Source: Candidatus Latescibacterota bacterium
GTDB taxonomy: Bacteria; Krumholzibacteriota; Krumholzibacteriia; WVZY01; JAKEHA01
DNA: 64,000 nt
NCBI GenBank assembly: GCA_963707635.1
Contig: OY970173.1
Span: forward strand, 224,001-288,000
Reading direction: 5' to 3'
Of the stretch, positions 832 to 24,502 are shown piece by piece. The translations under genes were made by a program, and so were the position numbers. Position 1 is the first letter of the stretch, and each line of letters opens with the position of its first letter. Below the pieces are notes generated by a model, which was not told where the DNA came from, ran no database searches, and was given only the letters and a program-made list of their open reading frames with translations.

Positions 832-1590
832 TTACCGATACAGGCTCTTGACCTCGCCCCAGGTTGCGGACTGCACCGCGAGCGGGCCGGTCAGATAATC
901 CCCGGTGGTCGATGCGTGGATCAGTGGCACACTGGGATCCTGTTGCGGGCCGGGGTTCGAGTGCAGCTCGAAGAACACGTCGAAGAAACTGTCGAAAGCC
1001 GGCGACGGGTTGACATGCACATTTCCGGGCATCAACCCGGGCGCGCAGTCGAAGTGCATGCGCAGCTCGTGACACCCTCCACCGGGACCCACCTCGACCC
1101 GATAGAATACGTCGAAGAACGAGTCACCCACGAACACGTCGAAGAAGCTGTTGGGAACAGCCGGATGAAGCGGCACCAGGTGCGCCGGTCCCCCTCCCGG
1201 GATATCGATCTCGTAGAAGATGTCGAAGAACGAGTCGACGGGCCATTGCTGCCCCCCCGCGAGCGGGATCTCATAGAAGATGTCGAAGAACGAGTCGATC
1301 ACCGGCGTCCCCGGCGGCAGCCCGTGCAGGGGCACGACCCGGGCCGGCAGCGGGTTTCCGCCCGGTCCGCCGGCGGACATCGCTCGGAGCACCTGGTGCT
1401 CCGTCAGGTCGAGGTGGAACGACCCGCCGGTCATGTGTCCGATCCCCTGGTCAAGGGGCGGCAGCGGGGCGAACCCCACCGGGGAAATCTCGGTGAAGAC
1501 GTCGAAGAACGAATCGATCGCGGCGGCGGGACCTGCGAACACGAGCAGGGCGACGCCGAGGGTGAGTACTACGGTAGCAACACGACGCAC
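832..1590 (-). CDS. Secreted hypothetical protein with six SFFD(V/I)F repeats and C-terminal TWGEVKSLYR motif
   Basis: ORF 832..1686; likely GTG start at 1590 after AAGGAGG; signal peptide MRRVATVVLTLGVALLVFAGPAAA. Confidence 0.85.
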   Translation of the reverse strand: MRRVATVVLTLGVALLVFAGPAAAIDSFFDVFTEISPVGFAPLPPLDQGIGHMTGGSFHLDLTEHQVLRAMSAGGPGGNPLPARVVPLHGLPPGTPVIDSFFDIFYEIPLAGGQQWPVDSFFDIFYEIDIPGGGPAHLVPLHPAVPNSFFDVFVGDSFFDVFYRVEVGPGGGCHELRMHFDCAPGLMPGNVHVNPSPAFDSFFDVFFELHSNPGPQQDPSVPLIHASTTGDYLTGPLAVQSATWGEVKSLYR

Positions 1591-1728
1591 GTCGGTCCTC
1601 CTTATCCATACTGCATGAGCTGAACAATCGCCAGACTCCCGGCCGGGGGGGCGTGGCGTACGGATTTGGATGGAACTACCCCGCAAGTATACCGCACCGG
1701 GAAGGATGATTTCCAGTCGGAGGGAGAG

Positions 1729-6894: not shown

Positions 6895-7848
6895 CTATTT
6901 GCCGGTTCGAATCGTCACGGAGGCGCGTTCGGCCGAGCCCGTGTCGACTTCGGTCACCACCACGATGCGTGACGGCTCGCCGTAGAGGTGCGGGATGAGC
7001 GTCGCCACCACTTCGTCGGCGATCGACTTCGCGAGGTTGAATGTCGGCGCGGTGACTTCCACTGTCACCGGTACCGTGGGAGCGGAGGAGTGGTTCAACC
7101 GTGTCGCCGCCTCCAGCACCACCGCTTCTGGCACGCGCCCCTGCACACTCTCCACAGATACCGAAAATGACATGCTGACGCCATCCTTGCTCTGCGTGAC
7201 GTGCGGCGGCAGCGTAAAGGCATCGCCGACGAAGCTGCGCTTGTTGCCCGCCTTGTCGGTCGCATTCAATACGTACGAATACGTGAGGTCGGAGCGCGCG
7301 GGTTTTCCGTCGATGGTCTCGCCATTCCACGCGATCTCTTTGGGCGGTTTGCCCGCGCCCTGGTAGCGAGCGACGGTCTTGCCGCGCGAATCGGCCACTT
7401 CGAGCGCCCATTTCTCGACACCGCTCACTTCGGGGCGGAAACGCGCGACGGGTCCGTCCCGGAAGGAATCGAGCCACGGCCGCGGCGCGTATGGCGAGCG
7501 CTCGTTCGCGGATCGTTCGAGCAACGGGTCGACAAAATCGAACGATTCCGCGCCGAGTGCCGTCCCCACGCTTTCCCAGTCGAGCCCGGGAGCGGTCGCC
7601 GGGTCAACTCCCAGCTTCAGCTCCGGCCGGTCGAACTGCACACGCACGCGGTCTTCGCCTTCCACGGTGATGCTGTTGAAGTTCTTGCCCTGCGCGCCGG
7701 CTTCGATGCGCATCGTGCTGTCCGGCGTCGCGGCTGTCGCCTTCTTCCGGGTATCGTTCGCAGATTTGGGTCCGGCCGCGTTCGCTCCATGCGCGAGGAG
7801 CCACACGCACGCTACACCGGACATCACGATGCGATTGCGTTTCGACAT
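6895..7848 (-). CDS. Secreted protein with FlgD-like Ig domain
   Basis: Signal peptide (..WLLAHGANA); WALEVADSRGKTVARY..IAWNGETIDGK..YSYVLNATDKAGN resembles FlgD_ig. Confidence 0.7.
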   Translation of the reverse strand: MSKRNRIVMSGVACVWLLAHGANAAGPKSANDTRKKATAATPDSTMRIEAGAQGKNFNSITVEGEDRVRVQFDRPELKLGVDPATAPGLDWESVGTALGAESFDFVDPLLERSANERSPYAPRPWLDSFRDGPVARFRPEVSGVEKWALEVADSRGKTVARYQGAGKPPKEIAWNGETIDGKPARSDLTYSYVLNATDKAGNKRSFVGDAFTLPPHVTQSKDGVSMSFSVSVESVQGRVPEAVVLEAATRLNHSSAPTVPVTVEVTAPTFNLAKSIADEVVATLIPHLYGEPSRIVVVTEVDTGSAERASVTIRTGK

Positions 7849-7876
7849 GGGACCCTTTCCTTTGCAAGAGCGCGCG

Positions 7877-8851
7877 CTACTGTGCGCCGCTCAGTCGGTA
7901 GTTGAACGTGATACGTCCCCATTGCTCGTTGGACGCGGGGCTCGACGGCAGCGCGACGAACTTCCACTCGAGCAGCGCCAGGACGGCGCGATCATCGAAA
8001 TCGGAAACGCCGCTGGTGCGCTCGACGAGCACGTTCTCTTTGACCCGCCCGTTGGGCAGCACGAAGAAATACAACGTCACCGAGCCCTCGATCGCGTCTC
8101 GCTTCGCCCAATCGGGATAGTCGGGAACGCGATAGCGCAGCACCTGGCGGTCGGCCACCGGACCGACCAGATTGGCCCCCGCGAGATTGCGCGCGCCCTG
8201 GCTCGGGGTTGTCGTCGTCGCCGGTTTCGGCGCTTCTTCGACGGGCGCTTCGATCAGCGCGGCCGCCATGACGGGCCTGGCCTCGGGGCGGCTTTCCAGG
8301 CGGCGCAACGCCACCGGTGCGGTGCCCGTTGCGACCGGTGCCGCGTCGCGCCGGAGCGTCGCGGCTACGGTGTTCGGCCGGTCACCCGGGCCCGGAAGGC
8401 CGGCAGGCGCGGGAATGCCGACATTCGGCGCGGGAATCAACGACGCGACGCGCGTGGTGGAATTTCCGTTGCGGTCGATCGCGTCGAGTCGTTTGTCGAG
8501 TAAATCCGTGACCGCGTGCGACGACTGTGACCCCGGCGCGTTGCTCGCGTCTTCGCGCGCGCGCTCGAAGGATTCGGGTGCTTTCGCCTCGCGTGTCGCC
8601 TTGAGCGAGACTTTTTGCACGGGCGCGCTGCTCGTCGTCTCGCTCGCCATCGGTGGCGCCGCATTCGGCTCTCCCGCCGGATCGGTCATATCGACGAACG
8701 TGATCTCCGTGAGCCCGGCCAGCTCGGTTCCGCTTGCTCGCGTGAGACCGAGCCATAGGAACACGATCAGGTGTAACACGATGCTGATGCCCATGCTCTC
8801 GCGCGTGCGCGCCTTGTCGTGCACCGATTCACGGATCGAAGCGTGCTTCAA
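7877..8851 (-). CDS. tonB: TonB-family energy transducer
   Basis: TM helix with S-x3-H (SIVLHL), Pro/Ala-rich linker, TonB_C domain YPDWAKRDAIEGSVTLYFFVLPNGRV..FDDRAVLALLEWKF. Confidence 0.9.
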   Translation of the reverse strand: MKHASIRESVHDKARTRESMGISIVLHLIVFLWLGLTRASGTELAGLTEITFVDMTDPAGEPNAAPPMASETTSSAPVQKVSLKATREAKAPESFERAREDASNAPGSQSSHAVTDLLDKRLDAIDRNGNSTTRVASLIPAPNVGIPAPAGLPGPGDRPNTVAATLRRDAAPVATGTAPVALRRLESRPEARPVMAAALIEAPVEEAPKPATTTTPSQGARNLAGANLVGPVADRQVLRYRVPDYPDWAKRDAIEGSVTLYFFVLPNGRVKENVLVERTSGVSDFDDRAVLALLEWKFVALPSSPASNEQWGRITFNYRLSGAQ

Positions 8852-9345
8852 GACTTCACTTCCTCGTTCGAGGAGCTGTCCTTGTGTGCGTCATGGATCG
8901 CTTTCCGCTCGGCGTTAGAATCCACATGCGACGACGCCTGTCCGCGCTGCTGCGTACCCACCGCGATTCGGGATGCGCCCGCGGCGCGCGCCGCGTCCAC
9001 GATCTTTCGCACCGACGCGTAGGCCACACTCTGGTCCGCGCGGATCACGACGATGGCCGCCTGGTGGTCGACGAGCCGCGCCGCGATCGCCTCCTTCAGT
9101 GCCGGCATGGTAAGATTCCTATCGTCCACCGCCAGCTCGCCGTTGGGGCCGAGCGTCACACTGATACGATCGTGGCCTTCGAGATTCCTGGTTTGCGCTT
9201 CCGGTAGCTTCACGTCCACATCCGATACTGCGATCATTGGCGCGGTGATCATGAGGATGATGACCAGCACGAGGGCCACGTCGATGATCGGCGTTACGTT
9301 GACTTTCGCGATCGGTCCTTCCGTCTGGGACTGAAGTCGTTTCAT
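8848..9345 (-). CDS. exbD: ExbD/TolR family biopolymer transport protein
   Basis: VNVTPIIDVALVLVIILMITAP TM with conserved Asp; VVIRADQSVAYASV. Confidence 0.92.
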   Translation of the reverse strand: MKRLQSQTEGPIAKVNVTPIIDVALVLVIILMITAPMIAVSDVDVKLPEAQTRNLEGHDRISVTLGPNGELAVDDRNLTMPALKEAIAARLVDHQAAIVVIRADQSVAYASVRKIVDAARAAGASRIAVGTQQRGQASSHVDSNAERKAIHDAHKDSSSNEEVKS

Positions 9346-9358
9346 TTGACTCTCCGGT

Positions 9359-9769
9359 CTAGAGGTCGAAGACGGCGATGTCGGTGGCGCCGCTCTGCCG
9401 GGCCTGGTCGAGCACGTTGACAAAGGCCCCGTGGCTGACACCCGGCTCGCAGCCGACGAACACACCGCGGTCGACGCCGGCCTCGAGAAGCGGCATGAGC
9501 GCGCTCTTCAGCGCCGCGCGCGGCACCAGGTCTTGGTTCACGCGCACGTTATCCTCCGACTCGATGATGATCTCGATGCGTTCGCTCTTCTTCTCCACTT
9601 TCGCCTTGCGGCCGGTCTTGGCCGCGCCGCTCACGTCGATGCGCGACTCGAAGGCGAGCGGGGTGGCGAGAATCAGCATTACCACCAGCACGAGCGACAC
9701 GTCGATCAGCGGCGTCATGTTGACCTCGCAGTTCGGCTCCGCGTCGCGGTTCCAATGCGTGATATTCAT
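9359..9769 (-). CDS. exbD: ExbD/TolR family biopolymer transport protein (second paralog)
   Basis: VNMTPLIDVSLVLVVMLILATP; VSHGAFVNVLDQARQSG. Confidence 0.9.
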   Translation of the reverse strand: MNITHWNRDAEPNCEVNMTPLIDVSLVLVVMLILATPLAFESRIDVSGAAKTGRKAKVEKKSERIEIIIESEDNVRVNQDLVPRAALKSALMPLLEAGVDRGVFVGCEPGVSHGAFVNVLDQARQSGATDIAVFDL

Positions 9770-9776
9770 GGCCTTG

Positions 9777-10481
9777 TCAGCCAATGTTGACGGTTTCGTG
9801 CGTTCGGAGCTTCCGCGGCGCCGGCTCCTCACGCATGCGACGACCCGCACGGTCGTCGGGGTCGCCACCATCGTTGAGCGCGGTACGCAATGCACGCGCT
9901 TGATTCTCCGCGATCGTCAGCATGACGTTCATGCGGCGGACGAAGTGGTTGTACGCGATGAGCGACGGCACGGCGACCACCAGGCCCACCGCCGTCGTAA
10001 TGAGCGCCTCCGCGATGCCGCCCGCGACCACGGTGGGCGCCGCTGACCCCACCAGCGCCATGTCGTGAAATGCGCGCATGATGCCCCACACGGTGCCAAG
10101 CAACCCCACCAGCGGCGCGGTGACAGCCATCGTGCCGAGGATGTTCAGGTTGCGCTCCAGGACGAGCTTCTGTTCGGAGAGTGTGACCACCAGCCGCTCG
10201 TCGAGCTCTTCGTTGCTCTCGCCCGGCGCCGCGAGCACGACCCGCATCGTCGCGGCGGCGGGGTGCCGGGAGTGCTCGCACGTCCACATGGCCTCCTTGA
10301 TGTCGCCGCGGCGCATGCGCTGCAACACCTCGCGGGCGATGTGCGCTGTGTCTCCACGGCGCGTCCAGTAGTAGTACGCGCGCTCGATGACGACGCCGCA
10401 CGTCACCACACTGAACGCGATCAGCGCAATCAGCACCGGACTTTGGGAAGTCAGTTTGATCCAGTCGAAATTCGAGTACAT
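9777..10481 (-). CDS. exbB: MotA/TolQ/ExbB proton channel
   Basis: APLVGLLGTVWGIMRAF and GIAEALITTAVGLVVAVP motifs. Confidence 0.95.
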   Translation of the reverse strand: MYSNFDWIKLTSQSPVLIALIAFSVVTCGVVIERAYYYWTRRGDTAHIAREVLQRMRRGDIKEAMWTCEHSRHPAAATMRVVLAAPGESNEELDERLVVTLSEQKLVLERNLNILGTMAVTAPLVGLLGTVWGIMRAFHDMALVGSAAPTVVAGGIAEALITTAVGLVVAVPSLIAYNHFVRRMNVMLTIAENQARALRTALNDGGDPDDRAGRRMREEPAPRKLRTHETVNIG

Positions 10482-10499
10482 GCGGGCTCTCCTTGTGGG

Positions 10500-13400
10500 T
10501 TACTGCGTCGCACGCTGCGGCGCACCGGACTGGAGCTCGCTCGCGCGCTCTTTCGCGGCGACCACGATCTCCGGATCGGTGGCGTTCTTGACGAGGTCGC
10601 GATAAGCGGCCAGCGCCTTCGGGTAGTCCTTGATCTTCTCGTAAAGGGCGGCGCTGTGCGCGATAGCGGAAAGCCGGTACGTGTCGGCTTTCTGGCTGTA
10701 GTTTGCCGCGAGGGCGTAGGCGGCGATCGCCCCCCGTTCGTCACCCAACTTCTCGCGGCAAAGCCCCAGTCGATAACGGATCTCGACCAGCGTCGCGCCC
10801 GGCATCTTGTGCTCGAGCGCGCGGCTGTATTCGCCGGCGGCTTCCTTGAAGCGGCCCGCGTCTTCGTGGATGATGCCGAGCTGCTGCGCCACTTCGCCGC
10901 TGCGCTCGTCGCGCGGGTGCTCCGTGCGGTACGCCGCCAGCATCTCGCTTGCCTGCTCGGGCTCGCCGAGCATGCGGTGGCAGAGCGCCAGGTTGTACTG
11001 CGCCGCCGTCTTCACTTCCGGCGCGGTCGAGTCCGCGAGCACGGCGGTGAAGTCCAGCGCGGCGCGCATGTAGTCACCTTCCGCGAAGCGCGCGGCGCCG
11101 AGCTGCAATTGCACGGAGCCGCGGTACTCGCTCTGCGGGAAGAACGATACAAACTGTTCGCAGGCTGCGCGCGCTTCCGGAGTCTTCCCGGCGCGCGTGT
11201 ACGAATCGGCCATCAGGTAGTGCGCGCGATCGGCCGCTGCGTACGAAGGGAACTGGCTCACCACGCGGCGAAACGCCTCCGCGGCGGCCTCGTAGTCCTT
11301 CGCCTGGTAGCGGCGCAGCGCAATCTCGAACTGTGCCTGCGCGGCAAACGAGCTGCCCGGATACTTCTCGACGAGCTGCGCGAGTGTGGCTTCGCCGTCG
11401 GCGCCCTGGCCGAGCTGGTAGAGCGCCTGCTCGAGGCCTTTCTTCGCGTCGGCGACCACCGCGTGGTCGGGGAAGCGCGCGATCACTTCCGAGTACGATT
11501 CCACGGCCTGCGGGTAGCGCGCCGCGTTGTAATCGCACTGCGCCATGCGCAGAAGCCCCACGGCAGCGCCGCTGCTCTCGCCGAAGTTCGTGAGCAGTCC
11601 TTCGTAGCAGCGACGCGCCTTGTCGTAGTGGCCGGTCAGGAAGTAGACATCGCCTGCGCGCGTCCACGCCCTCTCGGCGATGGCTGACGCGGGATCGATG
11701 CGCGCTGCTTCGTCCCAGCGATCCACCGCATCGCCGGTCTGGCCAAGACGCTGGTAGCACATGCCGGCCTGGTAAAGAGCGAGCGCGCGGTCCGGATGGT
11801 TCGGGAAATCCCGGAGGAACGCTTCGTACGTGCGCGCCGCGCTCTTGTAGTTCTTTTCGTTGAACAGAATGTGACCCTTGTTGAGGTACGCCGTGCTCAT
11901 GTCCTCGACATGACCGGTCGCGCCGTAGCGCGCGAGCATCTTGTCCTGCGTCTGCATGGCGAGGTCGAGTTTGCCTTCCTGCGCGTACGACCATGCGAGC
12001 AGCCGGTGCGCGGGCACACCGACGGCCTGGCCGCCGAACTCGGCGATGAGCTGCTGCAGCACCTCCTGGGCCTCGGTTTGACGACCCTGCGCCGCGAGTG
12101 CATCGGCATCGATCAGGAGCGCATCCGCGCGCCACGGCGACTTGCTCGGCGGCATGCGCTTGAGCATCAGGTGGGGAACACCGGACAACAGTCCGAGATT
12201 ACCCGCGCGGTGGTACGACAGCTCGAGCAGGCACAAGGACGCTTCCACGAGCTCCTGTCGCTCGGGTGTCGCGAATTCGATGGTGCCTTCGCCCTTGTCC
12301 TGCGCGTAGCGGTCGAGCACCAGACGGAAGTAGGGCACCGCGGCCATGGGCTTGTCCTGCGCCAGCATGCCGGTGCCCGCGAGGTATGCCGCGGCCGGCG
12401 CCTCGCGCGAGGTGGGATAACCGGAAACAACGGTTTGATATGCACTCGTCGCTTCGCTGTGGCGACCGAGCGCGTCGAGCGAGCGGCCGACGCGGTACTG
12501 CGCGAGTGAGGCCAGCGAATGCTGGAAGTAGCGCGTGAGCACTTTGTTGAATTCGACAATGGCCGCTTCGTACTGCTTGTCCTGGAATAGCACTTCGCCC
12601 AGCACGGCCTGCGAGCGCGCGGCGACGTTCGTGCCGTCGTACTCGGATGTCACCGCGCGCAGCGCATCGGTGCCGCCCTGGGTGTCGCCGGCAAGATACG
12701 TGGCTGCCGCGCCGCGCACCCTGGCTTCCGCCTGGATCGACGGATCAACCGCCTTGGTGGACACGAGCGCGAACTCTTCCATCGCGCTCTTGTACGAGCC
12801 GCTCTTCATGAACACGTTGGCCTTCGCGAGCATGGCGACGTCGGAGAGGCGCGCGTCATGATAGCGGTCGACCACTTCCTGGTAGCGCGCGGCCGCCTGC
12901 AGCGGTCTCTTCGTCGCTTCGTCGGTGAGCGCACGCAGATAGATACACGCCGCGTCGAGGGGCGAGCCGCTGGGAAGGACGCTCACGTCGGCGTACCGCC
13001 CCTCGAGAAACGCGGCCGTGGAGAGAGCCAGCGCAAAACGCGGGTCGCGCACGATCCACGGGAAACGCGTGCGCGCTTCCTTGAGCGTGCCGTTGGCGAG
13101 ACCCAGGCTGTCGGCCCGGATCGCCCCCCACGCGCGCGCGAGCAATGCGTCTGATACAGCGGTGGAACGGCCGTGGGTGTTGAACCACTGCGCCCATTCC
13201 TTGTCCGCCTGCGCGGCACGGCCGCTGGCCTGCTGCGACTGAATCGCGCCGAGGCTCGCGTCGGCCGCGAGCGGGGTGTCCTTCGATTCCTTCGCGGCGG
13301 ACTTGAACGCCTGCGCGGCGTCGTCGTAGCGGCCGTTGGCAAAGCGGATCTCACCGCAGAGAAAATACGCTGCTGCCTTTTCCTCGCCGCCGAGGTTGCC

Positions 13401-13589
13401 GATGAGCGCGTTCACGCGCGCATCCAGGTCGTTGAGGGTTTCGCTGCGCTCGATGGCGGCAAGCCGGTTCGCCTTCTCGAACGCCATCCCGAGGCCCGCA
13501 AGCTGTGATTTCGTGTCCGTGCTCGCCGCGCTCGCAACACCCGTCGCGAGAGCCACCATCGCCGCTGTAATGAAGCTGGTTCTGTGCAT
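10500..13589 (-). CDS. Large periplasmic tetratricopeptide-repeat protein (YbgF/BamD-like TPRs)
   Basis: Signal peptide; ~1000 aa of TPRs of the A..Y..VI..FP.S..A..A.Y..G type. Confidence 0.9.
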   Translation of the reverse strand: MHRTSFITAAMVALATGVASAASTDTKSQLAGLGMAFEKANRLAAIERSETLNDLDARVNALIGNLGGEEKAAAYFLCGEIRFANGRYDDAAQAFKSAAKESKDTPLAADASLGAIQSQQASGRAAQADKEWAQWFNTHGRSTAVSDALLARAWGAIRADSLGLANGTLKEARTRFPWIVRDPRFALALSTAAFLEGRYADVSVLPSGSPLDAACIYLRALTDEATKRPLQAAARYQEVVDRYHDARLSDVAMLAKANVFMKSGSYKSAMEEFALVSTKAVDPSIQAEARVRGAAATYLAGDTQGGTDALRAVTSEYDGTNVAARSQAVLGEVLFQDKQYEAAIVEFNKVLTRYFQHSLASLAQYRVGRSLDALGRHSEATSAYQTVVSGYPTSREAPAAAYLAGTGMLAQDKPMAAVPYFRLVLDRYAQDKGEGTIEFATPERQELVEASLCLLELSYHRAGNLGLLSGVPHLMLKRMPPSKSPWRADALLIDADALAAQGRQTEAQEVLQQLIAEFGGQAVGVPAHRLLAWSYAQEGKLDLAMQTQDKMLARYGATGHVEDMSTAYLNKGHILFNEKNYKSAARTYEAFLRDFPNHPDRALALYQAGMCYQRLGQTGDAVDRWDEAARIDPASAIAERAWTRAGDVYFLTGHYDKARRCYEGLLTNFGESSGAAVGLLRMAQCDYNAARYPQAVESYSEVIARFPDHAVVADAKKGLEQALYQLGQGADGEATLAQLVEKYPGSSFAAQAQFEIALRRYQAKDYEAAAEAFRRVVSQFPSYAAADRAHYLMADSYTRAGKTPEARAACEQFVSFFPQSEYRGSVQLQLGAARFAEGDYMRAALDFTAVLADSTAPEVKTAAQYNLALCHRMLGEPEQASEMLAAYRTEHPRDERSGEVAQQLGIIHEDAGRFKEAAGEYSRALEHKMPGATLVEIRYRLGLCREKLGDERGAIAAYALAANYSQKADTYRLSAIAHSAALYEKIKDYPKALAAYRDLVKNATDPEIVVAAKERASELQSGAPQRATQ

Positions 13590-13596
13590 AGGGATG

Positions 13597-14868
13597 CTAC
13601 TCCACGATAACCGGCACGCCGCCCTGCGGACCCGACGTGGTGATTTCGACCTTGTGCTCCTCGGCGCGGAGCGTACGGCCCTCTTCGTCGGTGACCACGA
13701 GGCGGTAGATGTAGAAGCCGTCCGGCAAGGTCATGCCGTTTTCGTCCTTGCCGTCCCACATCACGTGTGCGGGCGGAACCCCGGCGCCGCCGAACGTGCG
13801 CACGATCTGGTTGTGCTTGTCGACGATGTCGAGCTGCCACTGCTTGGTCTCCGCCTTGGTGCGCGCCTTGATGTTGAACTTGGTGACGGAGTTCTCGCCG
13901 ATCGGCGAGAAGACTTCTGGCGTCGCGTACGAGTTCGCGAAGAAGCCGCCGAACTTGTACGACACGGCAAGATAGTGCACGAGTCCGAGCTCGTGGTCGT
14001 TCATGCCGTAGTCGAACTGCATCGTCTGGTTGAGCCGATAGCTGAAGCCTCCCGCCGGTTCGTCGAAGGCGTATCCGGCGCGCAGGCCGAATGTGTCCTG
14101 GAACCACACTTCGGTGCCGGCGTGAAACGTCGTGCCTGGCCCTTCACGATGGTCCGCTTCGAGCGAAAGAAGTCCGCGCCCGTTGAGGAACGCGAAGGCG
14201 ACCCCGCCGCGCACTTCGAGCGGGTAGGTCTCCTTGACGTCGCGCGGCTGGAGCGACGGTCCGCCCAGATTCAGGAGCGAAACGCCGACGCGGAGCCGCG
14301 GCGTCACACTGTAGAGACCGCCGACGTCGGCTCCCACACCGGTCGAGGTGAAATCTTCGACCTGCTGGCGCACGATCTTGAGGTTGGTGCCGAGCGAAAG
14401 GCGCGGCGTCACGCTCTTCGCGGCGCTGATGAGGAAGGCCATATCGCTCTGCTTGAACGTGCCCAGCGATTCGTTGATATCGCTGGTGCGCTCGAAGTCA
14501 CCCGAGCTCAGCGACAGCATCGTGAATCCGAGCGACGGCAGTCGTCCGGACGGCATCACGAAGCTCAAACCGTTGATCGACGTGTCTTCGAAGTAACGCG
14601 CGGTTTCGAAGTGCGCTTCGTTTTGAAGCGACTGGGTGAGACCGGCCGGGTTCCACACCACGCCGAGCGCATCATCGGCGGTGGCGACGAAAGCGCCGCC
14701 CAGGCCGATCGAGCGCGCCGAAGCGTAGCGGGAGAGCCAGTCGCCGGGCACCCCGGCGGCGGCTTCCTCGGCGCGCGCATTGCTGCTCACGAGCGTGAGC
14801 GAGGCACACGCAGCGCCGCCCGCGACGATGAATCTAAGCATTGAACGAATCCGTTTGATGCAATGCAT
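13597..14868 (-). CDS. PorV/PorQ (FadL-like) family outer-membrane beta-barrel fused to a C-terminal FlgD-like Ig domain
   Basis: ARSIGLGGAFVATADDALGVVWNPAGL N-terminal signature; amphipathic beta-strands; C-terminal VFSPIGE..WQLDIVDKHNQIVRTF..WDGKDENG..PDGFYIYRL. Confidence 0.85.
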   Translation of the reverse strand: MHCIKRIRSMLRFIVAGGAACASLTLVSSNARAEEAAAGVPGDWLSRYASARSIGLGGAFVATADDALGVVWNPAGLTQSLQNEAHFETARYFEDTSINGLSFVMPSGRLPSLGFTMLSLSSGDFERTSDINESLGTFKQSDMAFLISAAKSVTPRLSLGTNLKIVRQQVEDFTSTGVGADVGGLYSVTPRLRVGVSLLNLGGPSLQPRDVKETYPLEVRGGVAFAFLNGRGLLSLEADHREGPGTTFHAGTEVWFQDTFGLRAGYAFDEPAGGFSYRLNQTMQFDYGMNDHELGLVHYLAVSYKFGGFFANSYATPEVFSPIGENSVTKFNIKARTKAETKQWQLDIVDKHNQIVRTFGGAGVPPAHVMWDGKDENGMTLPDGFYIYRLVVTDEEGRTLRAEEHKVEITTSGPQGGVPVIVE

Positions 14869-14883
14869 GTGACTGCTCCTCGC

Positions 14884-17800
14884 TTAACGCACGGCCGCGA
14901 TCTTGCGCGTCATGGTGTGAAGCGTTTCGCCCTGGCCCGCCGCTTCGATGCGAAGCACGTAACCGCCGCTCGAGACGAAATCGCCCTTTCCGTTCCTGCC
15001 GTCCCACGTGACCTGGTTGAGACCCGCGCTGCCGCCGGGCGAGCCGGGCGTGTAGGTCTTCTCGTACACGAGCCCGCCCGTGAGCGTGAAGATCCTCATC
15101 GTCACGGTGGCGTTGTCGTCGAGCTGGTAGGCGATCGTGGTCGGCGCCTCGCCCGGATGGAACGGGTTCGGGTAGTTGGTGACGAAGCCACCGGCGGCGT
15201 TCGGATCGACGAAGGCCGTCTCGATGTCGAGGTCGCCGTTGAGCGATCCCGACACGGCGCGGACGCGGCTGCGTTCCGGCGTGCGCGGACTGCGGAAGTA
15301 GCAGCGCGCGACACCGTCCTCCGTCGTGACGGAATCGATCGCCGTCAGCGAGCCGGAGCCCTGCGTCAGTGAGAACTTGACGGGCCGGTCTGGCACGCCG
15401 TTCTCGTATCCATCGATCACGCGCGCGGTGATTAGGGCGCGCTTGTTGCCGCCCACCCACCTCGGGTCACTGGAGAGCTTGATCTCCGTGGGCGCGCCCG
15501 GTGCCACCGTGATCACTTCGGACGTAGCCGGCGCGTTGCCGGCGTCGTCGCGGACAACCAGCACAATTGGCTCGGCGAAGGTGTACGTCTCCGGCATCGT
15601 GCGCTGCCCCTGCAGGAGCTGAAACTGTGTGGAGTACAACGTGCCGCGGCCGGGTGCGCGCGTGGTCGCGTGTTGCACGTCGACGGTGACGGCCGAGTTG
15701 ATCTCCTGGATGACACTGCCCGCGTCGTTGGTTATTTTCACGGTGAGCGTGAACTGTTCTCCGGCCTGCACGCTGAGCGGCGCTACAACGGCTTCCAGGT
15801 GGAAACCGCTCGAGATCGTGCGCACCTGCGTCGTGCTGGTCGGCATGCTCGGCCGCGTCACGTTGGACGCGGTGATCTGCTGAAAACCGCCGGTCGAAAG
15901 GCGCACGCTCATCTGCGCGACGCCGTCGACCATCGCCTGGTTGGGCGGGAGCTGCGCGAGCGGGTCATTCGACGTCAGATGAATGAGGTCGGTGGCACCG
16001 CCCACCGGGTTGTACCACTGGTCGGTCGCCTGCACGGTGACCACGAAGGAGTAATTGATCGACTGGTCGGTCGCGGTGCCCGTACGTCCTTCCGGCGTTC
16101 CCGGCGCGATCGACTCGCCCGGGCAGAGCACCACGATGCGCGAGTACGGACCGCCGATGATGCGAATCTGCGTCGACGTGTGGCCGTTCACGTTGCCGTC
16201 CGTCACATCGGTCGCGGTGACGCGTTGCATGCCCGATCGGTACATGCGGGTCGGCACGACGAGCTCGCCGTTGACGAGTGTGATCTGCGCCGGCATCTGC
16301 GCGAACGCGTCTGTCGACGACAGCGCGATGGTATGCGTATTGCCGGTGACGCGGTTGAAGTACTGGTCGCACGCGCGCACGGTCATGTTGAACTGTGCAC
16401 CCGCCTGCTGGTCGGTCGGCGTGCCCGTGAATCCGCTCGCGGTTCCGCCCGCCGCCGTCATGCCGGGATAGAGAATCAGCAGTTTCGCAACCGGACCCGG
16501 ATTGACGACGAAGTTGTTGCTCATGCCGGTGTGCGGAGGCGCGGAGAAATCCGCCACGGTGAACGACACCGCACCGCCCGCCCCCTTGAACATCATCGAG
16601 CCCTGCCACACGCCGTTGGTGAACACGATGGACTCAGGCGTGATGCTGCCCGGGCCGGTGTTGGCGATGATCAGCGCGTTGCCGTTGAATCCCGACACGG
16701 TGTTTCCGCTCTGATCGGTGGCGCGAATGCGCACGCTGACCGGTACTCCCGCCGTCTGCGGCGAGCTGATTGGATCGACGATGAAACGCTGCGCGGCATT
16801 CGCCATCACCGGAATGCCCTGCGTCGTAAAGGGCGTGATCGAACTGCGATCCCGGTCGGTCGCCGTCAGCGTCTGCGTTCCCACCGTGACGAGCGTGTAG
16901 TTGAAGCGCTCGTATCCGTTATCGAGATCGACGATGATCGTCGACGCACCCGGGTCACTCGAGGTGATGCGGGCATCGTCCTCGCTGGGCACCGGATTGA
17001 AGTAGTTATCCGTCGCGTACACGTCGACCGAGAACGGCTGGCCCGAGCTCTGTGCGGCGGGATTTCCAACATAACCGAGAAGACTGCCCGGCAATGGATC
17101 CTGGCCCGGCACGATGAGGAGAAGTTTCCGGAACGATCCGGGGTTGACGTAGAAGGGATCGCTGGTACCGTTGATCGACCCGTCGGTGTCGAGGTAGGCA
17201 TAAATGTTCACGTTGCCGCGACTTCGGTTGGTCACGTCGGCGCGATAGACCGTAACGTCGCCCGACCACACGCCACCCGACATCGTGATGACTTCCGGAT
17301 ACGCCCGGCCGACACCGTAACTCGTGAGTTCCTGCAAACTCACCTGTCCGTTGTAATTGACCAGCATGCCCCGCGGGTCCACCGCGCGGATGGTGACGTC
17401 GATCGGCTGGCCGGCATACTGCTCGCGGTGCCTGATGCTCGAGAAGGTGAAGCCCTGGAGCAGCATCGACGTGACGGGTGCCGAGATCGCGTTCGCAATG
17501 GTCGGGTCGGAATTGTCATCCGCGGTAAACGTGAAGGATCCCGCGGCATTGAGCGTCGCCTGAACCGTGGAGGTTCCGCCCGAGAGCGAAAACGACGGCG
17601 GCAGCGACGCGCTCCCGTCGGTGGAAGCGAGCGTCACGGAGTTCGTCACCGCGGTCACCAGGTTCCACGAGTTGTCGCATGCGCGAACAACCATGTTGAA
17701 CGGGACGCCGACGGTCTGCGTACGCGGAGCTCCGGTCTTTCCGGTGCCCGTTCCCGGCGCGGGCGCTTCACCCGGCAACAGGATCTGGAGTTTCGTGTAG

Positions 17801-17895
17801 GACTGCGCGACGGCGATGCGCGGAGTAACCGCACCGATCGCGGCGCAGGCCATAAGGCACACGAAATACCCGAGCGTCTTGAGGGCGTGTCGCAC
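14884..17895 (-). CDS. Secreted multi-Ig-repeat surface protein with C-terminal T9SS type A/FlgD-like sorting domain
   Basis: Likely GTG start at 17895 (RBS GAGGTG); tandem Ig-like modules, invasin Big_1-like domain, then NYPNPF..IAYQL..VTMRIFTLTGGLV..WDGRNGKG..SGGYVLRI..KIAAVR. Confidence 0.85.
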   Translation of the reverse strand: MRHALKTLGYFVCLMACAAIGAVTPRIAVAQSYTKLQILLPGEAPAPGTGTGKTGAPRTQTVGVPFNMVVRACDNSWNLVTAVTNSVTLASTDGSASLPPSFSLSGGTSTVQATLNAAGSFTFTADDNSDPTIANAISAPVTSMLLQGFTFSSIRHREQYAGQPIDVTIRAVDPRGMLVNYNGQVSLQELTSYGVGRAYPEVITMSGGVWSGDVTVYRADVTNRSRGNVNIYAYLDTDGSINGTSDPFYVNPGSFRKLLLIVPGQDPLPGSLLGYVGNPAAQSSGQPFSVDVYATDNYFNPVPSEDDARITSSDPGASTIIVDLDNGYERFNYTLVTVGTQTLTATDRDRSSITPFTTQGIPVMANAAQRFIVDPISSPQTAGVPVSVRIRATDQSGNTVSGFNGNALIIANTGPGSITPESIVFTNGVWQGSMMFKGAGGAVSFTVADFSAPPHTGMSNNFVVNPGPVAKLLILYPGMTAAGGTASGFTGTPTDQQAGAQFNMTVRACDQYFNRVTGNTHTIALSSTDAFAQMPAQITLVNGELVVPTRMYRSGMQRVTATDVTDGNVNGHTSTQIRIIGGPYSRIVVLCPGESIAPGTPEGRTGTATDQSINYSFVVTVQATDQWYNPVGGATDLIHLTSNDPLAQLPPNQAMVDGVAQMSVRLSTGGFQQITASNVTRPSMPTSTTQVRTISSGFHLEAVVAPLSVQAGEQFTLTVKITNDAGSVIQEINSAVTVDVQHATTRAPGRGTLYSTQFQLLQGQRTMPETYTFAEPIVLVVRDDAGNAPATSEVITVAPGAPTEIKLSSDPRWVGGNKRALITARVIDGYENGVPDRPVKFSLTQGSGSLTAIDSVTTEDGVARCYFRSPRTPERSRVRAVSGSLNGDLDIETAFVDPNAAGGFVTNYPNPFHPGEAPTTIAYQLDDNATVTMRIFTLTGGLVYEKTYTPGSPGGSAGLNQVTWDGRNGKGDFVSSGGYVLRIEAAGQGETLHTMTRKIAAVR

Positions 17896-18408: not shown

Positions 18409-19184
18409 GTGCACAGTTTTTCGAAAGCAGTTCTCATGCTCTCGCTTTGCCTGGTCTCTGCACCCGCGCTAGCCGCTGATCCGGCGTACTTCCGAATTCC
18501 TGATGAAAACCCCTATGGTGGAGGTCCGGGTTTCGGTGGCTATCACCCCTCCCATGAACAGTATTTTGGTCATCTGTGGGGGGTATTCTCTATGAGGACC
18601 TTCGTCAGCTCACCAAAGTGCTCCAGGTGGCGTCCGGAGGCGCGGGCGGCTCACAGATGTACTGCATCACACAGCTCTATGACAACTTGCCGCTAGGGGA
18701 GCGAGGTCCGACAACGTTCTTCGATATCAGTCGGTGGGAGAGTTTCCACGCCGGTCAACCATGGCCTCTAGATTCCTTCTTTGACATCTACTATGAGGTG
18801 AGGCCGGCCGGATTCGGCTCCCCGTTGACGTCGCTCTTCCCTGTCAATCCCAGTCTACCGGCGACGGACCCCGCGCGTTTCTTTGACATCACGTACGTTG
18901 ATTCTTTTTTTGACATCACGTACCGGTGCGTGAGTCTTTATGGAACGTATGAAATGCATCTTCATGGAGAACTGCAGCCCGCGCTCCGCCTCCAGAGTCT
19001 GGGCGTTCATCACCAGTCCAGCGGCGAGAGCTTCTTTGATGTCTTTTTCGACGTGGACCGTGTCGGCACTTTCGATCCGTCGAAACCGCTGCTGAAGACC
19101 ACGACGACCGGTGAAAACATTGGCGATGTCATCGCGGTTGAATCCGTCACCTGGGGCGCGGTAAAGGCGCTTTATCGTCAATAG
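18409..19184 (+). CDS. Secreted SFFD-repeat protein, paralog of 832-1590, frameshifted at a G6 run (18578-18583)
   Basis: ORF 18409.. has the signal peptide; ORF 18576..19184 has five FFD repeats and C-terminal VESVTWGAVKALYRQ; one extra G joins them (GHLWGGILYEDL vs paralog GHMTGGSFHLDL). Confidence 0.75.
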
Positions 19185-22366: not shown

Positions 22367-24502
22367 TTAGCGCAGCACGACGAGCTTTCCGGCTTGCGTG
22401 GTTCCCGCAGCCGTGAGCCTCACGAAATAGACTCCGCCGTTGAGCCGGCCACCGGCGCCAGTCGTGGCATCGAGCTGGTACGATCCCCATCCGGCCGGCA
22501 CGCCGTGCATCACATCTGACATGACCCGTCGCCCCGCCACGTCGAAGATGTCGATCGTCACATCCGACGCGCTCGGCAGTCCGAATCGAATCTCGGTCTG
22601 TCCGGCGAATGGATTCGGCGCGCTGGAAAGCAGCGTGAGCGTGCCCGGCGTCGGCGGTGACGTTCCCACACGGAAGTTCGCCTGTTGTGTAACCGGTCCG
22701 TTCATGGTGACGGTCGCGGGGTTGCTGGCGCCGGTGTAGGAACCGTTTCCCGTCCCGGACCACGAATCGAAGGAGTACCCGGAATCGGGTGACGCAGTGA
22801 CGCTCACGAGCGAACCGCCGTCGGTCCATCCGCCACTCGGGCCGGCCGTCCCACCGGCGCCGGCGGTCACGGTGAGCACGTACTGAACCTTGAAGGTCGC
22901 GGTATAGGTGATGTTCCCGTTCGGCGACACGGTGTGCGTCGCGGCCCCGCCGTCGCTCCAGGTCATGAACAGGTAGCGCGCGTCGGCGCTCACCGTCTGC
23001 GGCGAGGTCGCCTCGATGGTGTGCGACGCACCCGGCACCCACGCGAACGTCTGCGAGCTGGTATATGGACTCCCGTCCACCAGGAACGATCGCCCGCTCG
23101 GCGTGGAGCGCACGGTGACCGTGACGCTGTTCCCGAACGCAGCCGTCTCGGTGATGGGTCCGTCCATGGTGATTGTCGCCGGGTTCGCATTGCCGCTGTA
23201 GGAGCCGCTCCCGGATCCGGTCCATCCGTTGAAGCCGTAGCCCACATCGGGCGTGGCGGTGATCTCCACCGGCGTGCCGGCGTTGTGCCAGCCGCTCGCT
23301 GGAGCCACGGTGCCGTTCGCTCCTGCGGTCATCGTGAGATAGTGCTGCGTGGTGAAGTTCGCGGTGTAGGTGCGGCTGGAGTTGGGCGCCACGGTCTGGG
23401 AGATCGCGCCGCCACTGCTCCAATTCGCCCACACGTACTGCGTGCCGCTCGCGCCGGCCTGGGGCGACGAGGTGGCGATAGTGTGAGATTCGTTGGGATT
23501 CCATTCGAATATCTGCGTGCTCGTGTACTCGACATCGTCCACCGTGAACGAACGGCCCGGGGGGGTGGTCTGCACCGCCACCGAGATTCCGGTCGGAATG
23601 CTCTTGAAGGTGACGTCGTTGAGCGTGAGCGACGTCGGGCTGGTGGCGATCCACGTGTCGCCCGCGTCCGCCGTCTTGAGAACGACACCGGCGACACCGG
23701 CGGCCCAGCCGGTGGTCCCGTCGATGAACGCGACCGATGTGAGCTCGGTGGACACCGGGCGCTGCTCGCTCCAGTTGCTCCCGCCGTTGGTCGACTTGAG
23801 AACGACCCCGGATCCGCCGACCGCCCATCCCACCGACGCACTCACGAACGTTACCGCATTGAGCGGTCGCGTCGTGGGCTTCGTCGTGGTCCACGAGGCT
23901 CCTCCGTTGGTGGTCTTGAGAACCGTACCCACGCTTCCAACCGCCCAGCCGGTGGAGGTGCTCATGAAGAACACATCCTCGAGGATGGCGGACGTGGGCG
24001 CGCTCACGGTCCAGTTGATCCCGCCGTTGGTGGTTCGCAGCGCCACGCCGTTGCCGACCGCCCAGCCGGTGTTCGCATTGACGAAATAGACCGCGTTGAG
24101 CGTCGCGGGTGTCGGCGTCGAGGCGGTCCAGTTCGCGCCACCGTTGGTGGTGCGGAGCACGGTGCCGGAATTCCCGACGGCCCACCCATGATTGGCGTCG
24201 ACGAACATCACGTCGTTCAGGTTGACCGCGGTGGGAGACGTGAGCGACCAGTTCGCGCCGCCGTTGGTGGTGTGCATCACGAGTCCGCCGAAGCCGACGA
24301 CCCAGCCCTCGTTGTCGTTCACGAAGCTCGCGGCGGTGAGGGTGACGCCTGCGGGCGAGGTGGCAGTCCAGTTTGCACCGGCGTCGCTCGACTTGAGAAC
24401 CACGCCATTGGCGCCCACGGCCCACCCGGCCGCGAACGCGGGAGCGCCGGCAACAACGAGGAACAACGAAATGCTCGCGGCACAGGCAACCTTCAGGCGC
24501 AT
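22367..24502 (-). CDS. YCF48-like 7-bladed beta-propeller + InlB B-repeat-like domains + T9SS/FlgD-type CTD
   Basis: Signal peptide; seven GWAVG..G.VL.TTNGG.NW repeats; two tandem GY.F..W.G.G.GSY.G..NPAT.TM.GP modules; SAPNPF..IFDVAGRRV..GVYFVRL..KLVVLR. Confidence 0.88.
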   Translation of the reverse strand: MRLKVACAASISLFLVVAGAPAFAAGWAVGANGVVLKSSDAGANWTATSPAGVTLTAASFVNDNEGWVVGFGGLVMHTTNGGANWSLTSPTAVNLNDVMFVDANHGWAVGNSGTVLRTTNGGANWTASTPTPATLNAVYFVNANTGWAVGNGVALRTTNGGINWTVSAPTSAILEDVFFMSTSTGWAVGSVGTVLKTTNGGASWTTTKPTTRPLNAVTFVSASVGWAVGGSGVVLKSTNGGSNWSEQRPVSTELTSVAFIDGTTGWAAGVAGVVLKTADAGDTWIATSPTSLTLNDVTFKSIPTGISVAVQTTPPGRSFTVDDVEYTSTQIFEWNPNESHTIATSSPQAGASGTQYVWANWSSGGAISQTVAPNSSRTYTANFTTQHYLTMTAGANGTVAPASGWHNAGTPVEITATPDVGYGFNGWTGSGSGSYSGNANPATITMDGPITETAAFGNSVTVTVRSTPSGRSFLVDGSPYTSSQTFAWVPGASHTIEATSPQTVSADARYLFMTWSDGGAATHTVSPNGNITYTATFKVQYVLTVTAGAGGTAGPSGGWTDGGSLVSVTASPDSGYSFDSWSGTGNGSYTGASNPATVTMNGPVTQQANFRVGTSPPTPGTLTLLSSAPNPFAGQTEIRFGLPSASDVTIDIFDVAGRRVMSDVMHGVPAGWGSYQLDATTGAGGRLNGGVYFVRLTAAGTTQAGKLVVLR

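Follow-up and report, generated by a model that had tools for sequence, protein, structure and literature searches.

The window analysed here is a 64,000-nucleotide stretch of contig OY970173.1 from Candidatus Latescibacterota bacterium (phylum Krumholzibacteriota, assembly GCA_963707635.1), which corresponds to C1:224001-288000 of a 3.2-Mb single-contig genome (G000) that is 96.4% complete. At positions 6895-17895 of the window, eight minus-strand open reading frames (ORFs) form an operon that appears to combine an exported immunoglobulin (Ig)-like protein and an outer membrane barrel of a kind known from type 9 secretion systems (T9SS) with an ExbB-ExbD-ExbD-TonB motor. The genes are as tightly packed as a preliminary description of this DNA had claimed (gaps below 30 bp), with intergenic distances, in gene order, of 15, 7, 18, 7, 13, -4 and 28 nt. 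The first gene, ORF1 (14884..17895, minus strand, as are all features of the operon given below), encodes a putative cargo of 1003 amino acids (aa) with a signal peptide, eight Ig-like domains and a C-terminal domain (CTD) of an atypical subtype (residues 895-1003, 14887..15213) that is likely a T9SS-type export signal. ORF2 (13597..14868, 423 aa) encodes a PorV/PorQ-family barrel followed by a C-terminal Ig domain, the latter likely periplasmic, and ORF3 (10500..13589, 1029 aa) a tetratricopeptide repeat (TPR) solenoid with a signal peptide, likely a periplasmic scaffold. The motor genes comprise an ExbB/TolQ-type proton-channel subunit (9777..10481; PF01618, 114.9 bits, above the cut-off), two PF02472 proteins, ExbD1 (9359..9769) and ExbD2 (8848..9345), and a TonB-like protein (7877..8851) with one transmembrane helix bearing an SxxxH motif, a flexible linker and a TonB_C domain. 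The last gene, ORF8 (6895..7848, 317 aa), encodes a likely periplasmic adaptor composed of a signal peptide, a linker, an Ig domain and an OmpA-C/MotB-like domain, and a TonB-box-like strand at its residues 58-65 (7654..7677) is a candidate grip for TonB. A promoter and terminator scan returned chance-level signals only.

Conservation of the gene order, which had been proposed as a check on the operon, was examined in Krumholzibacteriota, of which 151 genomes were searched, 117 of them of good quality. An initial locus search with ORF3 retrieved only four close relatives and one spurious TPR match, and a first search with ORF8 gave a match in 102/151 genomes. Around 40 of these 102 matches, picked for long contigs and family spread, 20 kb were fetched, and the same gene order was found in all 40 loci and in locus L074, as far as the contigs extend and at identities down to 24-30% (L041 is truncated by the contig end, and L040 and L064 each contain a split gene). 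No conserved flanking genes were found, the largest flanking families reaching just 4 of these 41 loci. Two subtypes were distinguished: subtype A, which includes the window, with an ORF1 of ~1000 aa and a TonB of ~310 aa, and subtype B, with an ORF1 of ~2250 aa and a TonB of ~440 aa. In loci L047 and L065, ExbD2 and TonB share a single reading frame, representing either a fusion or an assembly error, and one genome carries a second, decayed operon copy of the subtype B type, with stops in its ORF8 (L127, G056:C4). An Eisenbacteria-labelled ORF8 query retrieved 78 metagenome loci, on contigs without a taxon; 28 of them had enough upstream DNA, and in 27 of these TonB immediately precedes ORF8 on its upstream side. 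Five long loci carry all eight genes. Homologs are also source-labelled Eisenbacteria, Zixibacteria and Firestonebacteria, where they are known from homology rather than gene order, while the nearest labelled ORF3 homologs (66-80% identity) belong to Candidatus Krumholzibacteriia. The ORF2 profile matched 100/151 genomes, the ORF8 profile 99/151 and both together 98; each was found in 79 of the 117 good-quality genomes and in none of the six genomes of one family (f8). Near-complete genomes without the operon include G001 (100% complete) and G024 (97%, two contigs). Judged by these sequence comparisons, the operon moves as a block and is accessory.

The genomic background includes several parts of a type 9 secretion machinery. 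SprA and PorU, both suggested earlier as targets of a genome search, are present: SprA is encoded in one 2098-aa frame (TIGR04189, 492 bits, cut-off 200) that lies outside the window, in line with the earlier statement that the window contains no sprA, and PorU is located beside PorV. SprA was matched in 151/151 genomes, 147 of them above the cut-off. The genome of the window also has nine PorV-family genes and 112 CTD-like ORFs, identified by their match to a hidden Markov model (HMM) derived from its own CTDs. GldL, GldM and GldN gave no match in this genome, although very divergent forms could escape such a search; GldM was matched in 0/151 genomes, GldN in 0/11 and GldL above its cut-off in 0/11. 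The best GldK match in the genome (96.9 bits) is far below the cut-off of 350, and no complete GldKLMN motor was seen. PorP/SprF (PF11751) was likewise not matched in the genome, with five matches in the positive control, a Bacteroidales genome (G151) in which GldL, GldM and GldN were also found.

The first two genes of the operon resemble a T9SS cargo and its carrier. The preliminary description had assigned Ig repeats and a T9SS type A/FlgD CTD to ORF1, and family searches gave Big_1 and a C-terminal FlgD_ig (30.8 bits, cut-off 27), with the type A model TIGR04183 matched only below its cut-off (16.2 bits, cut-off 23). No CHU_C match, and thus no type B CTD, was found by family search. On the HMM from the genome's own CTDs, the ORF1 CTD scored 61 bits (lower quartile 80), and an HMM of its subtype next matched, at 88.8 bits, a giant cargo whose gene adjoins one for a PorV-TPR protein. 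Taken together, these profile scores indicate that the ORF1 CTD is real but atypical, and because its nearest kin is the CTD of that giant Ig protein beside a PorV-TPR fusion, the results suggest a subtype that uses cognate carriers. The giant Ig protein itself (L076:7222-18629 = C1:2501218-2512628) is at least 3176 aa long and is followed by the PorV-TPR fusion, with no motor adjoining. The structure model of ORF1 is an all-beta, beads-on-a-string chain (pLDDT 90.3, pTM 0.46); Foldseek searches with the whole protein returned generic multi-Ig chains only (TM-score at most 0.21) and no specific structural match, and no catalytic or ligand-binding domain was recognised by Pfam/NCBIfam, the model or Foldseek.

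ORF2 was correctly described as a PorV-family barrel with a FlgD_ig domain (PorV_fam 119 bits, cut-off 90). When its sequence was searched against the PDB, PorV (6h3i_F, E 1.2e-14) was the sole barrel match, and the possibility that it is a FadL transporter was not borne out: PF03349 was not matched, and at the sequence level its nearest solved relative is not FadL. The C-terminal Ig of ORF2 is not a normal CTD (27 bits, with an acidic end and the CTD end motifs missing) and is closest to the Ig of ORF8 (47.6 bits). This Ig type is the repeat unit of tandem arrays, and 14 of the 15 long proteins of this kind that were checked end in OmpA. A domain C-terminal to an even-stranded barrel would face the periplasm, and hence the Ig of ORF2, which comes after such a barrel, would be periplasmic. 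The gene linkage and the CTD subtype suggest that ORF1 may stay bound to its co-encoded barrel.

The middle of the operon was also identified correctly, as the TPR protein, ExbB, both ExbDs and TonB matched their families, the motor members above their cut-offs (ExbD, 56.8 and 91.7 bits; TonB_C, 43.2 bits; TIGR01352, 44.8 bits, cut-off 27.1). ORF3 scored 125 bits on the PorW/SprE model, below its cut-off of 250. Equivalents of Escherichia coli ExbB T148, E176 and T181 are retained in 42/42 aligned rows, as is the transmembrane Asp of ExbD1, and the SxxxH motif of TonB retains its Ser in 39/40 rows and its His in 40/40. The Asp of ExbD2 is present in the window protein and in all 20 subtype A rows, and replaced by Asn in 18/20 subtype B rows. 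Subtype B loci (L048-L070), with an Asp in ExbD1 and mostly an Asn in ExbD2, possibly have a half-active heterodimeric axle. By its conserved residues, the motor of the window looks intact and is presumably active. The TonB-like protein has ~20 residues before its transmembrane helix and no cytoplasmic steering domain, and it scored only 17.3 bits against the AgmX/PglI tail (cut-off 40). As had been claimed for the window, no homolog of a TonB-dependent receptor (TBDR), TolB or Pal was found in the 41 operon loci compared, and the lack of a TBDR implies that TonB would need another target.

Phylogenetic analysis, which the preliminary description had proposed as a check, placed the operon motor apart from the other Ton/Tol-type motors of the same genomes. 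Eight ExbB matches are spread over seven loci of the genome, namely the operon, a Tol-Pal locus, a TBDR-linked pair, an Agl-Glt-like cluster and three others. A quick maximum-likelihood tree was built from 110 ExbB/TolQ rows, with six loci left out for want of an ExbB row (L093, L096, L115, L129, L133 and L139) and with the phylum's four GltG-linked ExbBs, rather than any Myxococcus sequence, as the proxy for Agl. In this tree the 43 operon-type ExbBs formed one clade (Shimodaira-Hasegawa-like approximate likelihood ratio test [SH-aLRT] 96), separate from the Tol-Pal (97), TBDR-linked (94), Agl-like (99) and near-universal PorV-linked (96) clades. E. coli ExbB and TolQ are on long branches and their placement is unsure.

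ORF8 had been described as a secreted FlgD-like protein, but the anatomy of its structure model speaks against this. Behind the signal peptide follow a variable linker, a conserved low-confidence segment, the Ig (residues 132-213; FlgD_ig weak, 18 bits) and the OmpA-C/MotB-like domain (212-317). The OmpA-like domain aligned with 3oon (VIA-align Z 10.4, rmsd 3.2, 102 aligned residues) and the Ig with the PorU CTD (Z 8.9, rmsd 2.4, 80 aligned), and Pfam OmpA was matched weakly in 13/40 homologs. Since the Ig is internal and an OmpA-like domain comes after it, ORF8 is probably periplasmic rather than a secreted CTD protein. Its residues 58-65, where strong conservation sets in beyond the linker, fit a PROSITE-type TonB-box pattern, which 8 of 2338 genes in the genome fit within their first 125 residues. 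The pattern was also found in 48 of 120 database homologs of ORF8, many of them close kin, at a shuffled rate of 0.17%. According to a position-specific scoring matrix (PSSM) built from eight native TBDR boxes of the phylum, the aligned strand was the top N-terminal window in 31/40 ORF8 homologs, with a median best score of 5.9 for ORF8 versus 0.5-2.8 for ORF1, ORF2, ORF3 and TonB. By this measure no exported protein of the operon other than ORF8 scores like the carrier of a box, and the identification of the strand as a TonB box is suggestive. A predicted complex of TonB_C (residues 222-324) and ORF8 (48-135) scored 0.00 with an uncertain partner fold and counts neither way. The idea that the N-terminal part of ORF8 is a remnant TBDR plug was rejected, as profile comparison revealed no similarity past the box; no ORF8-barrel fusions were found among 7994 longer candidates, which is weak evidence.

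The reading that we tentatively favour, and that could well be correct, is that a dedicated ExbB-ExbD-ExbD-TonB motor pulls a single cargo-carrier pair via ORF8 and ORF3, for extraction and then tethering or retraction, the PorV-like carrier being predicted to keep the Ig rod on the cell surface. ORF1, with its signal peptide, would cross the inner membrane, and it would exit via the shared SprA pore, with its CTD bound to ORF2, a step modelled on PorV/PorQ/SprF-cargo pairs. The C-terminal Ig of ORF2 would remain in the periplasm as a handle and join ORF8 and ORF3. Proton flow through ExbB-ExbD, for which the residues are observed, would move TonB, which may then grip the box-like strand of ORF8, as it does the TonB box of a receptor, and tug. 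Last, and as the weakest step, the tug would draw the carrier-cargo pair from SprA and then tether or retract the Ig rod. Extraction is taken as the most likely output since, according to one study, the step that needs energy is the one at which SprA releases carrier and substrate (PMC10994853). Cargo proteins and cognate barrels have been reported to be co-encoded and to remain bound (PMC10202324). In the Agl-Glt model, a strand of periplasmic GltF inserts in the TonB-like domain of GltG (PMC11761067).

Several observations weigh against this interpretation. The conservation of ORF1 equals that of the motor (in 14 subtype A loci, a median of 55% vs 52% for ExbB), and an adhesin would not usually be so conserved. 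The strict TonB-box pattern was found in only 3/40 diverse aligned ORF8 homologs, and the 35/40 obtained with the relaxed version reflect a pattern loosened after the alignment had been inspected. The box signal is modest, ORF8 ranking 35th of 2104 genes by PSSM and 14% of genes reaching the median of the homologs. In a profile-profile comparison of ORF8 with TBDRs (nine TBDR rows, obtained from 22 input loci and the genome itself), box aligned to box at a non-significant E of 0.093, equalled by 3/30 shuffles. The window ORF8 has Pro268 and Ile276, matched by eye to E. coli Pal, at what we take to be the positions of the Asp and Arg with which OmpA-C domains bind the peptide stem; Glu and Arg are each kept there in 19/40 homologs. 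Because these residues are absent from the window protein and partly retained in subtype B, wall binding by ORF8 is uncertain. Moreover, the genome has other cargo-barrel pairs without an adjoining motor (PorU-PorV, an M6-like protein and the giant Ig protein), and hence extraction from SprA may need no dedicated motor. The interactions and function proposed for the operon are predictions from sequence-level data. A bolder version of the dedicated-motor proposal, which we regard as unlikely, is that a soluble periplasmic adaptor offers TonB a box to grip, by which an Ig rod exported through the T9SS is dragged or retracted together with its own PorV-like carrier, resulting in surface motility or prey and particle capture, in phyla whose type 9 secretion would run wholly on Ton-type motors in place of GldLM; this would be a fourth kind of output for Ton/Tol/Agl-type motors.

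Import is a further, equally doubtful, explanation. ORF1 would then be a surface receptor for a conserved ligand, TonB would pull ORF8 to open a PorV/FadL-like barrel, and ORF2 and ORF8 would represent a split TonB-dependent transporter. An import-type TonB_C together with a TonB-box-like strand is consistent with such a role, as are the high conservation and fixed length of ORF1 and a weak FadL match, below the cut-off, in one distant ORF2 homolog (P0334). However, ORF8 has no plug similarity outside the box, ORF2 itself no FadL match and ORF1 no recognised ligand-binding or catalytic domain, and no transporter or catabolic neighbour is conserved across the 41 loci.

Less probable again is gliding or surface motility, in which the motor would move the carrier-bound adhesin along the cell, like Agl-Glt or SprB-SprF. 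The ExbB, two ExbDs, TonB-like protein, TPR protein, barrel and surface protein mirror the Agl-Glt layout (PMC5349195, PMC11761067), and FlhA gave no match in the genome. This likeness had been noted in the preliminary description, and it holds for the layout but not beyond: TonB lacks a cytoplasmic steering domain and an AgmX/PglI tail, and the GltG-like gene is located in another locus with an ExbB of another clade. That separate Agl-Glt-like cluster (L078 and L086 = C1:2764000-2786343) contains a myxobacterial-type barrel (59.9 bits, cut-off 60), a 1640-aa TPR protein, ExbB, two ExbD-like genes and a GltG-like tail (87.8 bits, gene at C1:2785354), and its OMP_myx barrel has no homolog in the 41 operon loci. 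Agl-Glt-like loci are also found in G056, G006 and G011, and they and the operon occur apart, since G011 has such a locus and no operon, and in G078, which has the operon, none of the four ExbBs is Agl-like. The OmpA-like domain of ORF8, which suggests a fixed anchor, argues against gliding as well.

That same domain lends some plausibility to an envelope tether or tension device, in which Tol-Pal-like capture and release would pin the outer membrane and the rod would be a surface spacer or strut. The TPR protein recalls CpoB/YbgF, the operon ExbB clade is sister to a TolQ-containing group (SH-aLRT 94 in the quick tree) and ORF1 is strongly conserved. Nonetheless, we consider this improbable, given that a complete Tol-Pal locus lies elsewhere in the genome, that the operon was not found in about one third of relatives and that the canonical peptidoglycan-binding residues are missing from the window ORF8.

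It is very improbable that the operon holds an ordinary ExbBD-TonB set energising TBDRs encoded elsewhere, beside an unrelated cargo-barrel pair. TonB systems often act in trans, and the genome has four TBDR matches, but the TBDR-linked loci have their own ExbB, and the operon combines its own ExbB clade with strict eight-gene linkage at 24-30% identity. Least credible of all is the idea that the operon stands in for GldKLMN throughout the lineage, as one reading of the preliminary description would have it, and powers all type 9 secretion: although SprA was matched in all and GldM in none of the 151 genomes searched and ORF3 weakly resembles SprE/PorW, the operon cannot be a general T9SS motor because it is accessory, with 38 of the 117 good-quality genomes having SprA and no ORF2 or ORF8 match (G001 and G024 among the near-complete genomes without the operon), and a different locus is near universal instead.

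This second PorV-motor locus (L077:1428-8917 = C1:1369427-1376916) comprises a TBDR, a PorV-family protein, GWxTD, ExbB, ExbD and ExbD (TBDR-PorV-GWxTD-ExbBDD), followed by TolC. Its PorV was found in 148/151 genomes and the locus in 15/15 relatives examined, two of which have just two ExbB matches; a TonB-like gene is present there in 14/15 relatives, with none seen at this position in the window genome. As a general source of energy for the T9SS, this locus is a better candidate than the operon. A further ExbB-ExbD locus lies by a BamG-like barrel (72.5 bits, below the cut-off) and a TPR protein (L080:1920-7002 = C1:1594919-1600004), with related loci in nine relatives. Other genes of note were seen in the window. 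A 711-aa protein (22367-24502, minus strand) with a YCF48-like propeller, InlB B-repeats and a type A-like CTD is an ordinary CTD cargo. Two paralogous-looking secreted proteins without a Pfam match (832-1686, minus strand, and 18576-19184, plus strand) contain SFFD repeats and end in a short [ST]WGx[ILVM]K tail; 39 ORFs of the genome have this ending, which is perhaps a second sorting signal.

Compared with known systems, the operon shares features with four and, on the features tested, is a member of none of them (canonical T9SS, Agl-Glt, Ton or Tol-Pal). In Bacteroidota, the cargo-carrier pairs are PorU-PorV, PorZ-PorQ, type B cargo with PorP/SprF and PorE, and SprB-SprF, with GldLM as the energy chain. 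The operon likewise has a CTD cargo next to a cognate PorV-like barrel in a genome with SprA and PorU, and its periplasmic TPR and OmpA-C-like parts recall PorE (PMC12773672, PMC10202324); by contrast, its motor is ExbB-ExbD-TonB, in a genome where GldL/M/N and PorP/SprF were not found and GldK stayed below the cut-off. SprF and PorG are disulfide-linked to GldK according to a further report (PMC12635249), whereas the ORF2 barrel has a C-terminal Ig and no cysteine in its mature part. With the Myxococcus Agl-Glt system (AglRQS, GltG/J, GltF, GltC/D/E, GltABH and CglB), the operon shares one ExbB-type and two ExbD-type proteins, a TonB-like arm, a TPR scaffold, a barrel, a surface protein and a small periplasmic strand donor, which is GltF in the published model and would be ORF8 here. 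It differs in lacking the AgmX/PglI tail and a cytoplasmic FHA or zinc-finger part, in having a PorV-type barrel and an Ig rod with a CTD instead of a GltABH-type barrel and a VWA lipoprotein (neither a GltABH-type nor a CglB-type family match was found in its eight proteins), and in an ExbB outside the proxy Agl-like clade of the quick tree. The ExbB Thr/Glu/Thr, ExbD Asp, TonB SxxxH and TonB_C are shared with the Ton system, as the box-like strand may be; the operon departs from that system in having two ExbD genes, no TBDR in the 41 loci and a box-like strand on a soluble protein without plug or barrel. As in Tol-Pal, the motor's partner would be a soluble protein of the periplasm, with an OmpA-C-like domain nearby, but TolB and Pal are missing, and the Tol-Pal locus and clade are separate. 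In its working, the operon would resemble a cross between a T9SS cargo-carrier pair (PMC10202324, PMC12773672) and an Agl/Ton motor (PMC5349195).

No published description of the eight-gene operon was found in the literature searched, most subscription papers and supplements being outside its scope. Descriptions of type 9 secretion make it dependent on a GldLM motor and a GldKN hub. The sample of this phylum contrasts with that GldLM-dependent picture, with SprA matched in every genome and GldM in none, and PorV-family barrels adjoin Ton-type motors at two loci. A 2025 paper infers that type 9 secretion arose within Bacteroidota gliding (PMC12635249). The near-universal TBDR-PorV-GWxTD-ExbBDD locus is a testable candidate for a general energy source of type 9 secretion, and ORF8, itself no receptor, is a candidate new substrate of TonB. 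The operon, compact at eight genes, could serve to test whether a TonB is able to drive a T9SS carrier.

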